Source of the DNA: Escherichia coli
Lineage (GTDB): Bacteria; Pseudomonadota; Gammaproteobacteria; Enterobacterales; Enterobacteriaceae
DNA length: 64,000 nt
Assembly (NCBI RefSeq): GCF_003018235.1
Contig: NZ_CP027437.1
Strand: one strand, 5' to 3'
Position 1 is the first letter of the stretch. The number at the start of each line of letters is the position of its first letter. The notes beneath the pieces were generated by a model, which was not told where the DNA came from, ran no database searches, and saw only the letters and a list, made by a program, of their open reading frames with translations. A program made the translations under genes and the position numbers. Positions 56,268-59,200 of this stretch are shown in pieces.

Positions 56268-59200
56268 ATGAATAAGAAATTTAAATATAAGAAATCGCTT
56301 TTAGCGGCTATTTTGAGCGCAACCCTGTTAGCCGGTTGTGATGGCGGTGGTTCCGGATCTTCCTCCGATACGCCGCCTGTAGATTCTGGAACAGGGTCTT
56401 TGCCGGAAGTGAAACCTGATCCAACACCAAACCCGGAGCCGACGCCTGAGCCAACGCCGGACCCAGAACCTACGCCGGAACCGACACCTGATCCTGAGCC
56501 AACACCAGAACCGGAGCCAGAACCTGTTCCTACGAAAACGGGTTATCTGACCCTGGGCGGAAGCCAGCGGATAACTGGTGCTACTTGTAATGGTGAATCC
56601 AGCGATGGCTTTACCTTTACGCCAGGCGACAAAGTCACCTGTGTGGCAGGGAACAACACGACAATTGCTACCTTCGACACCCAGTCAGAAGCTGCGCGTA
56701 GCCTGCGTGCGGTTGAAAAAGTGTCGTTTAGTCTTGAGGATGCGCAAGAACTGGCGGCTTCCGATGACAAGAAAAGCAATGCGGTTTCGCTGGTAACGTC
56801 CAGTAACAGCTGTCCGGCGAATACAGAACAGGTTTGCCTGTCGTTCTCCTCTGTGATCGAGAGTAAACGTTTCGACTCACTGTATAAGCAAATCGATCTG
56901 GCACCGGAAGAGTTCAAAAAGCTGGTCAATGAAGAGGTGGAAAACAATGCTGCGACCGATAAAGCGCCATCCACTCATACCTCACCGGTTGTGCCTGTCA
57001 CCACGCCGGGAACAAAACCGGATCTGAACGCTTCCTTCGTGTCGGCTAACGCGGAACAGTTTTATCAGTATCAACCTTCGGAAATCATTCTCTCCGAAGG
57101 CCGACTGGTCGATAGCCAGGGATATGGTGTTGCTGGCGTCAACTACTACACCAATTCAGGCCGTGGCGTGACAGGGGAAAATGGTGAATTTTCCTTTAGC
57201 TGGGGCGAAACCATCTCCTTTGGTATCGATACCTTTGAACTGGGTTCAGTGCGCGGCAATAAGTCGACCATTGCGCTGACTGAACTGGGTGATGAAGTTC
57301 GCGGGGCGAATATTGATCAGCTTATTCATCGCTATTCGACGACCGGGCAAAATAATACCCGTGTTGTTCCGGACGATGTACGCAAGGTCTTTGCCGAATA
57401 TCCCAACGTGATCAACGAGATTATCAATCTCTCGTTATCCAACGGTGCGACGCTGGATGAAGGTGAGCAAGTTGTTAATCTGCCAAACGAATTTATTGAG
57501 CAGTTTAAGACGGGTCAAGCCAAAGAGATCGATACCGCGATTTGTGCGAAAACCGACGGTTGTAACGAGGCTCGCTGGTTCTCGCTGACGACGCGCAATG
57601 TTAATGACGGCCAGATTCAGGGCGTTATCAACAAGCTGTGGGGCGTGGATACGAACTACAAATCTGTCAGCAAGTTCCATGTATTCCATGACTCTACCAA
57701 CTTCTATGGCAGCACGGGTAATGCGCGCGGTCAGGCGGTGGTGAATATCTCCAACGCGGCCTTCCCGATTCTGATGGCGCGTAATGATAAAAACTACTGG
57801 CTGGCGTTTGGCGAAAAACGCGCCTGGGATAAAAACGAGCTGGCGTACATTACGGAAGCGCCTTCTCTTGTTGAGCCGGAAAACGTTACGCGCGATACCG
57901 CCACCTTCAACCTGCCGTTTATCTCGTTGGGGCAAGTCGGCGATGGCAAGCTGATGGTTATCGGTAACCCGCACTACAACAGCATTTTGCGTTGTCCGAA
58001 CGGTTACAGTTGGAACGGAGGCGTTAATAAAGACGGGCAGTGTACGCTCAGCGGTGATTCAGATGACATGAAGAACTTCATGGAGAACGTGCTGCGCTAT
58101 CTGTCAAATGATCGCTGGTTGCCGGATGCAAAATCCAATATGACCGTAGGCACCAACCTGGATACTGTCTATTTCAAACGTCATGGTCAGGTTACAGGAA
58201 ACAGCGCTGAGTTCGGCTTCCATCCGGATTTTGCGGGTATCTCCGTTGAGCATTTAAGTAGCTATGGCGATCTCGACCCGCAGGAAATGCCGCTGCTGAT
58301 CCTCAACGGCTTTGAGTATGTGACTCAGGTGGGGGGCGATCCTTATGCAATCCCGCTGCGTGCAGATACCAGCAAACCGAAGCTGACTCAGCAGGATGTG
58401 ACCGATCTGATCGCCTATCTGAACAAAGGTGGATCGGTGCTGATCATGGAAAACGTGATGAGCAATCTTAAGGAAGAGAGCGCGTCTGGTTTTGTGCGTC
58501 TGTTGGATGCTGCAGGTCTGTCAATGGCACTGAACAAGTCGGTGGTGAATAACGATCCTCAAGGGTATCCGAACCGCGTTCGTCAGCAGCGCGCAACGGG
58601 CATTTGGGTCTATGAACGTTATCCTGCCGTAGACGGTGCGCTGCCGTACACCATCGATAGTAAGACAGGGGAAGTTAAGTGGAAATATCAGGTAGAAAAC
58701 AAACCTGATGACAAACCGAAGCTGGAAGTTGCCAGCTGGCTGGAAGATGTAGATGGCAAACAGGAAACGCGTTATGCCTTTATTGATGAGGCCGATCATA
58801 AAACAGAGGATTCTCTGAAGGCTGCGAAGGAGAAAATTTTCGCGGCGTTCCCGGGGCTGAAAGAGTGTACTAATCAGGCATATCACTACGAGGTCAACTG
58901 TCTGGAATATCGTCCTGGCACGGGGGTTCCGGTTACTGGTGGCATGTATGTTCCACAGTATACGCAACTAAGCCTTAACGCCGACACGGCAAAAGCGATG
59001 GTGCAGGCTGCGGATTTAGGCACCAACATTCAGCGTCTGTATCAGCATGAGCTCTACTTCCGGACCAATGGTCGCAAAGGTGAGCGTCTGAGCAGCGTCG
59101 ATCTGGAACGTCTGTACCAGAACATGTCGGTCTGGCTGTGGAACGATACGAGCTATCGTTATGAAGAAGGCAAAAATGACGAGCTGGGCTTTAAAACGTT

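Follow-up and report, generated by a model that had tools for sequence, protein, structure and literature searches.

SslE (YghJ), a mucin-degrading lipoprotein metalloprotease at the surface of Escherichia coli, is both a vaccine candidate and a model for how lipoproteins are exported by type II secretion. The present analysis concerns the proline-rich half of the N-terminal tether that lies between its lipid anchor and NT1, its first folded domain, as encoded in a 64,000-nucleotide stretch of E. coli DNA (contig NZ_CP027437.1, assembly GCF_003018235.1; hereafter the window). This segment, a run of Pro-X dipeptides, probably forms an extended, acidic and unstructured stalk.

Several described systems offer points of comparison. 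TonB carries a (Glu-Pro)n-(Lys-Pro)n spacer thought to form an extended, rigid segment that spans the periplasm. Like the SslE run, it consists of alternating X-Pro dipeptides in an envelope protein, but TonB is a non-secreted protein held by a transmembrane helix and has both an acidic and a basic block, whereas the SslE run is acidic or neutral and follows a lipid anchor; the two are not homologous. The procyclins of Trypanosoma brucei (EP/GPEET, PF05887, Trypan_PARP) are also lipid-anchored surface proteins with a long acidic Glu-Pro stalk that is extended and protease-resistant, although their anchor is glycosylphosphatidylinositol and the organism is a eukaryote. The PF05887 profile matches SslE residues 40 to 88 (E = 1.2e-7) below its curated cut-off (32.2 bits against 100), and homology to procyclin was rejected, the likeness being purely compositional. 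Secreted glycoside hydrolases, among them the cellulases of Cellulomonas fimi, have Pro-Thr ('PT') linkers that adopt an extended form, resist proteases and sometimes carry O-glycans. These linkers share with SslE the runs of P-T and P-x dipeptides that join domains, but they lack its acidic character and have a folded domain at both ends, where SslE has an anchor at one. Pullulanase (PulA) is a lipoprotein that a type II secretion system (T2SS) secretes; it bears Asp at position +2, stays in the inner membrane until export and has a disordered N-terminal tether before its first domain. SslE shares the export route, the +2 residue and the disordered tether; the PulA tether is, to our knowledge, shorter and has no alternating-proline repeat.

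The segment itself is already known and named as the flexible or proline-rich linker of SslE. In the passages searched of Corsini et al. 2022 (PMC8881592), mature residues 1 to 66 are described as "an unstructured ~5 kDa region" and a "flexible linker", and the construct starts at mature residue 67 (K90). In those of a 2023 epitope study (PMC10637626), residues 44 to 90 are "a poly proline-rich domain", a loop that stands out from the AlphaFold model. In neither paper do the searched passages treat the anatomy of the repeat, polymorphism in unit number, the junctions of indels or a comparison across the family. The additions made here are descriptive, namely the spectrum of unit numbers, the junctions of the indels and the rebuilding of the spacer across the family; they refine a named feature and open no new question. 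They serve as background for construct design and for epitope work on residues 44 to 90, where the usual 20 units (plus or minus one or two), the rare 11-unit allele, the retention of the tether in the secreted antigen and its rebuilding from different repeats in other genera are all of use.

Anatomy and predicted structure of the SslE tether

The open reading frame (ORF) at 56268 to 60830 (+ strand) is the sslE (yghJ) coding sequence (CDS) and translates to a lipoprotein M60 metalloprotease of 1520 residues. The identification as sslE, already made in the first-pass annotation, is confirmed by its first 601 bp, which are 100% identical (megablast) to a gene of E. coli CFSAN018748 that bears the annotation 'lipoprotein metalloprotease SslE'. 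The product contains DUF4092 (PF13322, 3.6e-93), M60-like_N (PF17291, 3.2e-11) and Peptidase_M60 (PF13402, 1.9e-36), all above the Pfam cut-off, and the HExxH motif of M60-like peptidases is present as HEVGH, as in members of the SslE/AcfD family. Three PDB entries (23px, 23py and 23pz, 'Putative lipoprotein AcfD homolog', 1520 aa) match it over the full length.

The signal peptide with its lipobox, LLAGC, occupies 56268 to 56339 (+), with the Cys24 codon at 56337 to 56339 followed by Asp at +2. Signal peptide and lipobox are the same in all 17 E. coli alleles read, and the lipobox Cys is invariant in the family alignment, as expected of SslE/AcfD lipoproteins. Removal of the signal peptide and lipidation of Cys24 would leave about 65 residues between the anchor and NT1. 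The first part of this tether is Gly/Ser-rich (25 residues, 25 to 49, DGGGSGSSSDTPPVDSGTGSLPEVK; 56340 to 56414, +). The second part is the Pro-X run of 20 alternating dipeptides (residues 50 to 89; 56415 to 56534, +; 120 bp), which holds 11 acidic and no basic residues. NT1 (residues 90 to 234, mature 67 to 211; 56535 to 56969, +; limits from PMC8881592) starts at K90, directly after the run. The first-pass annotation had described a proline-rich repeat of about 120 bp between the lipobox and the first folded domain, and both its size and its position hold, the latter bounded by Cys24 on one side and, on the other, by the predicted fold and the published construct, each starting at residue 90. 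The span of 56415 to 56535 that it proposed starts correctly and ends one base too far, since the K90 codon begins at 56535. On neither strand does the ORF list of the window show another ORF of 60 aa or more that overlaps 56415 to 56534.

Structurally, the tether appears disordered in an AlphaFold2 model of residues 1 to 235 built with a 13-sequence family alignment. There is no secondary structure before residue 90, and the predicted local distance difference test (pLDDT) score, taken in 10-residue blocks, ranges from about 42 to 79 up to residue 89. It stays below 50 to residue 45, covering residues 25 to 45 of the Gly/Ser-rich part, lies at 50 to 59 to about residue 70 and reaches 73 to 79 for residues 71 to 89. 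The first strand, at residues 90 to 96, has pLDDT above 90, and confident strands and helices continue from there. The run combines regular, dense proline (every second residue over 40) with the lack of regular secondary structure, as is characteristic of a polyproline-II-type spacer.

Codons 50 to 89, the first of which begins at base 56415, read PDPTPNPEPTPEPTPDPEPTPEPTPDPEPTPEPEPEPVPT. Proline occupies all 20 alternate positions, and X is Glu at eight, Thr at seven, Asp at three, Asn at one and Val at one. Six P-[E/D]-P-T tetrapeptides lie within the run, together with about 2.5 copies of a 30-bp unit of higher order, P(N/D)PEPTPEPT. The proline share is 50%, against 5.7% for the whole of SslE, and the chance of drawing 20 alternate prolines from the composition of the protein is of the order of 1e-24. 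The pattern is far beyond chance.

The regularity of the peptide far exceeds that of the DNA. Tandem Repeats Finder (TRF) reports weak repeats with a period of 30 (2.5 copies, 75% match), 12 (1.9 copies, 90%) and 18 (2.7 copies, 70%), and the longest exact internal repeat is 11 bp. The long perfect or near-perfect tandem repeat typical of a contingency locus is absent, the long arrays matching at 70 to 75%. Codon choice is shifted within the linker: its proline codons are seven CCT, seven CCA and six CCG, while the rest of sslE has CCT/CCC/CCA/CCG at 13/1/9/43 (p = 0.009), a shift off CCG from 43 of 66 to six of 20, and its threonine codons are ACA and ACG only (p = 0.004). In simulations, however, neither the longest repeat nor the count of repeated 9-mers fell significantly below expectation: values no greater than those observed arose in fractions of 0.33 and 0.14 of the simulations, respectively, under rest-of-gene codon usage, and of 0.64 and 0.45 under permutation of the linker codons. 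No claim of selection against slippage through codon choice is made.

Length of the Pro-X run in E. coli

Of 5,426 complete E. coli genomes, about 4,090 carry the sslE N-terminal region. The ranked matches were sampled systematically ("spread") twice, and the two sets of 59 full-length records were pooled into 118 records. Twenty units were found in 99 of the 118 (84%), 19 units in 15 (13%), 21 units in three (2.5%) and 18 units in one (about 1%). The sample drawn with a 264-bp query, from Cys24 into NT1, comprised matches of 264 bp (28 records), 267 bp (22), 258 bp (seven), 252 bp (one) and 270 bp (one), and that drawn with a 146-bp query confined to the repeat comprised matches of 146 bp (49), 140 bp (eight) and 152 bp (two). 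The +3 bp (267 bp) class was rejected as a repeat variant because its indel lies in NT1.

Seventeen E. coli alleles read directly have 11, 18, 19, 20 or 21 units, so the length is not invariant, in keeping with the changeable repeat number put forward in the first-pass annotation. The common variants differ by one or two dipeptides only. Both deep SslE variants, the IHE3034 type and that of the window, have 20 units, and the ten K-12 derivatives in the sample are identical in length; the differences between close relatives that would be typical of a contingency locus were not seen, with a single length in 99 of 118 records. The 11-unit allele was found in the tail of the match ranking, in UPEC957C, where the CDS is intact, and it occurs with 100% identity over 161 bp in seven records from six strains. 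The sslE repeat is nearly fixed in length in E. coli and is no hypervariable contingency locus.

Two further candidates were set aside. The 17-unit allele P0038/L016 was rejected as an E. coli allele, its best match among complete E. coli genomes having about 82% nucleotide identity, and by its sequence L016 probably comes from another Escherichia species. The partial match in E. coli EPSSH018 was rejected as a repeat variant on account of an IS3 insertion at the start of the repeat. In this strain (L019, locus positions 1432 to 2836), the IS3-family element at the Pro-X start truncates sslE to a 62-aa 'hypothetical protein'. The sslE of CT282 (L008) contains an internal stop, and its annotation marks it as a pseudogene. 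The sslE N-terminal region is missing altogether from about a quarter of complete E. coli genomes, and five matches lie on plasmids.

The NT1 indel that accounts for the +3 bp class falls at 56580 to 56590 of the window (around residues 104 to 108), where alleles with the extra 3 bp read RVTGDITCND in place of RITG-ATCNG. It is present in 22 of 59 sampled alleles (~37%; seen in L003 and L014), which makes it the commonest length class differing from the window.

Indel junctions

Every indel junction that was read sits at a short direct repeat, and all of the indels are multiples of 6 bp that keep the Pro-X register. The 11-unit allele lacks 54 bp, a deletion whose ends fall exactly at the copies of a 9-bp direct repeat, CCAGAACCT, starting at the left copy (56463 to 56471, +) and ending at the right copy 54 bp further 3' (56517 to 56525, +). 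The 21-unit alleles (+6 bp; L005 and L012, reading CCTGATCCTGATCCTGAG) carry a duplication of CCTGAT within CCTGAT-CCTGAG (56487 to 56498, +), giving CCTGAT-CCTGAT-CCTGAG. The 19-unit alleles (-6 bp; L002, L008, L010 and L013) have lost CCAACA between the CCA copies of CCA-ACA-CCA (56499 to 56507, +). The best DNA tandem pair, GAGCCGACGCCT / GAGCCAACGCCG (PEPT-PEPT; 56436 to 56459, +), is the period-12 repeat with 90% match, and the 18-unit (-12 bp) alleles lack one of its copies. This 12-bp gap is found in L004, L009 and L018, and in the non-E. coli Escherichia allele L016 (17 units). The two E. coli backgrounds L004 and L018, both without the unit, are very different. Either the change is recurrent, or a single copy was the ancestral state and the pair arose by duplication.

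Synonymous differences between the units are common to the alleles, and because they are shared from allele to allele, the units are individually orthologous, with no homogenisation. The coding DNA is an old, degenerate repeat. Its length seldom changes, and does so through slippage or deletion at direct repeats of 3 to 12 bp, with the length in E. coli held close to 20 units. The first-pass suggestion of length change by slippage stands insofar as polymorphism exists and its junctions bear the signature of slippage or microhomology, but such changes are rare.

Proline-rich spacers in the SslE/AcfD family

Homologues were collected by an exhaustive HMMER search with residues 90 to 700, which yielded only 132 representatives at 50% identity. 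It replaced a word-indexed search with the N-terminal 359 residues, which had been swamped by low-complexity proline words and gave 37 matches, mostly fragments. Thirteen sequences with a simple lipobox-to-NT1 architecture, the window allele and 12 homologues, were tabulated from Escherichia, Plesiomonas, Vibrio cholerae (AcfD), V. ponticus, Ferrimonas, Aeromonas and Enterovibrio. All 13 have a spacer between Cys and NT1, of 28 to 65 residues, with 18 to 36% proline, four to 15 acidic and zero to three basic residues; no simple-architecture homologue without a spacer was found among them. Two further homologues, one from Shewanella, have like spacers of about 27 to 33 residues.

The units from which these spacers are built are unrelated: (EPPx)n in Plesiomonas, two copies of IEIPPDIPPP in V. 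cholerae and PDQELPDQERPDPELPE in Aeromonas. Among the 13, the E. coli spacer is the longest, and it alone alternates strictly. In Plesiomonas, two alleles (1481 and 1501 aa) that are 93% identical differ by a single 20-residue gap inside the spacer, which corresponds to five EPPx units. Conservation thus extends to composition and position, while sequence, unit type and length turn over between lineages. On the sequences compared, the spacer is expandable over evolutionary time. The term 'expandable', which the first-pass annotation applied to the repeat, fits these distant relatives, as in Plesiomonas, but not E. coli, with its degenerate DNA and 84% of records at 20 units. In the other genera, a spacer of like composition has been rebuilt from different units and to different lengths.

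The E. coli run contains no Pro-Pro pair, the sole pair in the tether being P36-P37, unlike the Plesiomonas and V. cholerae spacers, which are made of PP and PPP motifs. Such motifs need elongation factor P (EF-P) for efficient translation, and this difference in sequence may entail a difference in translational cost between genera.

Six homologues (P0045, P0049, P0056, P0086, P0096 and P0109) are longer, at 1800 to 2200 aa, with 300 to 800 extra residues before NT1. Their extra domains look like repeated adhesin-type modules, and most keep a short proline-rich joint just N-terminal to NT1. In P0127 and P0128, the SslE N-termini read Ser as Phe, Pro as Leu, Thr as Met or Ile and Ala as Val throughout. 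These look like translated C-to-T converted (bisulfite-type) reads that were assembled and entered the public protein collection, rather than real alleles, and one of them is without the whole linker.

Proposed function of the run and alternative explanations

A strictly alternating, highly acidic Pro-X chain is unable to form helices or sheets. Such a chain would be stiff, polyproline-II-like, extended and protease-resistant, and would be repelled by the anionic membrane and the lipopolysaccharide (LPS) surface. An extended chain spans about 0.31 nm per residue. At this geometry the 40 residues would reach about 12 nm, or about 0.6 nm per unit, and the common length variants would shift that reach by about 1.2 nm at most. 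The stalk would hold the 160-kDa enzyme off the membrane, first at the inner membrane, during engagement of the folded protein with the T2SS encoded next to it, and then at the cell surface. The proposal of the first-pass annotation that such a repeat may determine the reach of the protease from the membrane is plausible.

The anatomy, the absence of predicted structure, the allele lengths with their indel junctions and the occurrence of the spacer throughout the family are shown here, whereas we infer that the chain is extended, that it serves as a spacer and that its length is under selection. Several points weigh against an extended, free stalk. The pLDDT of 73 to 79 over residues 71 to 89 is one such point, and the model suggests that the last Pro-X units, instead of being free, may be packed on NT1. 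The persistence of the 11-unit allele as an intact gene in six strains, together with the family range of 28 to 65 residues, indicates that length is not tightly constrained in absolute terms. Finally, the allele frequencies come from 118 sampled records of about 4,090, in which classes rarer than ~1-2% are not fully enumerated.

The variation in length raises two rival explanations. If the run were a hypervariable, contingency-type repeat, a stronger form of the first-pass idea, frequent slippage would vary the reach of SslE between close relatives; length variants do exist, all with slippage or microhomology junctions, and the absence of the same 12-bp unit from the L004 and L018 backgrounds could mean recurrence. 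This account is nevertheless largely refuted, and is most improbable, given DNA units only 70 to 75% alike with no exact repeat above 11 bp, only five length classes with one length dominating at 84% across both deep variants, uniform K-12 derivatives, synonymous unit differences kept across alleles without homogenisation, and indels that are all in frame and multiples of 6 bp. The second would be a neutral, low-complexity filler, for which any flexible sequence and length suffices and whose conservation in E. coli reflects recent ancestry and a low mutation rate. The unrelated units and varying spacer lengths between genera fit this idea, as does the survival of the 11-unit allele. It seems unlikely, however, since a composition of proline and acidic residues with almost no basic ones is kept in every genus despite replacement of the sequence, and since no simple-architecture homologue lacks a spacer. 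Nor does the linker evolve within E. coli at a higher rate than the adjoining NT1: variants I and II differ at two of 40 Pro-X residues, against seven of 41 at the start of that domain.

A role beyond passive spacing was also considered. The seven threonines in P-x-P-T contexts could be O-glycosylated, making the run an immunodominant, mucin-like stalk that acts through glycans, antibodies or mucus. Native YghJ is heavily O-glycosylated (PMC8417355), and, in the epitope study (PMC10637626), rabbits given native glycosylated YghJ strongly enrich the proline-rich motifs of residues 44 to 90, whereas those given the non-glycosylated protein hardly do so. The published map of 54 glycosylated residues, on the other hand, has no peptide before residue 91, although the acidic 41-residue tryptic peptide 50 to 90 would be hard to detect, and the spacer repeats of Plesiomonas, V. 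cholerae and Aeromonas have few or no Ser/Thr, so that glycosylation is not the family-wide reason for the spacer. As the primary explanation it is doubtful. A stronger claim, which we consider rather improbable, is that the acidic Pro-X stalk is a tuned element, with its length matched to envelope geometry (T2SS reach or LPS clearance) and its P-x-P-T threonines bearing O-glycans that make residues 44 to 90 the signature epitope of native SslE. Were this true, the 11-unit allele found in a uropathogenic lineage and the 19-unit allele, which several B2 lineages carry, would be variants of display or immune visibility, with consequences for SslE-based vaccines. A cut after the linker that frees secreted SslE was also considered and is unlikely: antibodies raised by native glycosylated YghJ, the secreted protein, recognise residues 44 to 90 (PMC10637626), which shows that secreted SslE keeps its linker.

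Genomic neighborhood and the +2 residue

Genomic neighborhood analysis places sslE next to the T2SS-beta operon, which is its exporter. In the window, the start of the operon spans 60986 to 63248 (+), with pppA at 60986 to 61795, gspS-beta at 61861 to 62271 and gspC at 62289 to 63248, assigned from the ORF list and the annotation of an identical genome. In that genome, glcA lies 5' of sslE, and pppA, gspS-beta, gspC and gspD of the T2SS-beta follow directly 3', the adjacency to a secretion operon seen for this family.

Asp at position +2 is the classical Lol-avoidance signal for retention in the inner membrane. It is encoded here as Asp25 (56340 to 56342), directly after the lipobox Cys, and is present in all Escherichia alleles. 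The +2 residue of simple-architecture homologues from other genera is G, F, L, K, I, N or H, never Asp, and among the long-architecture homologues printed, P0045 also has Asp at this position.

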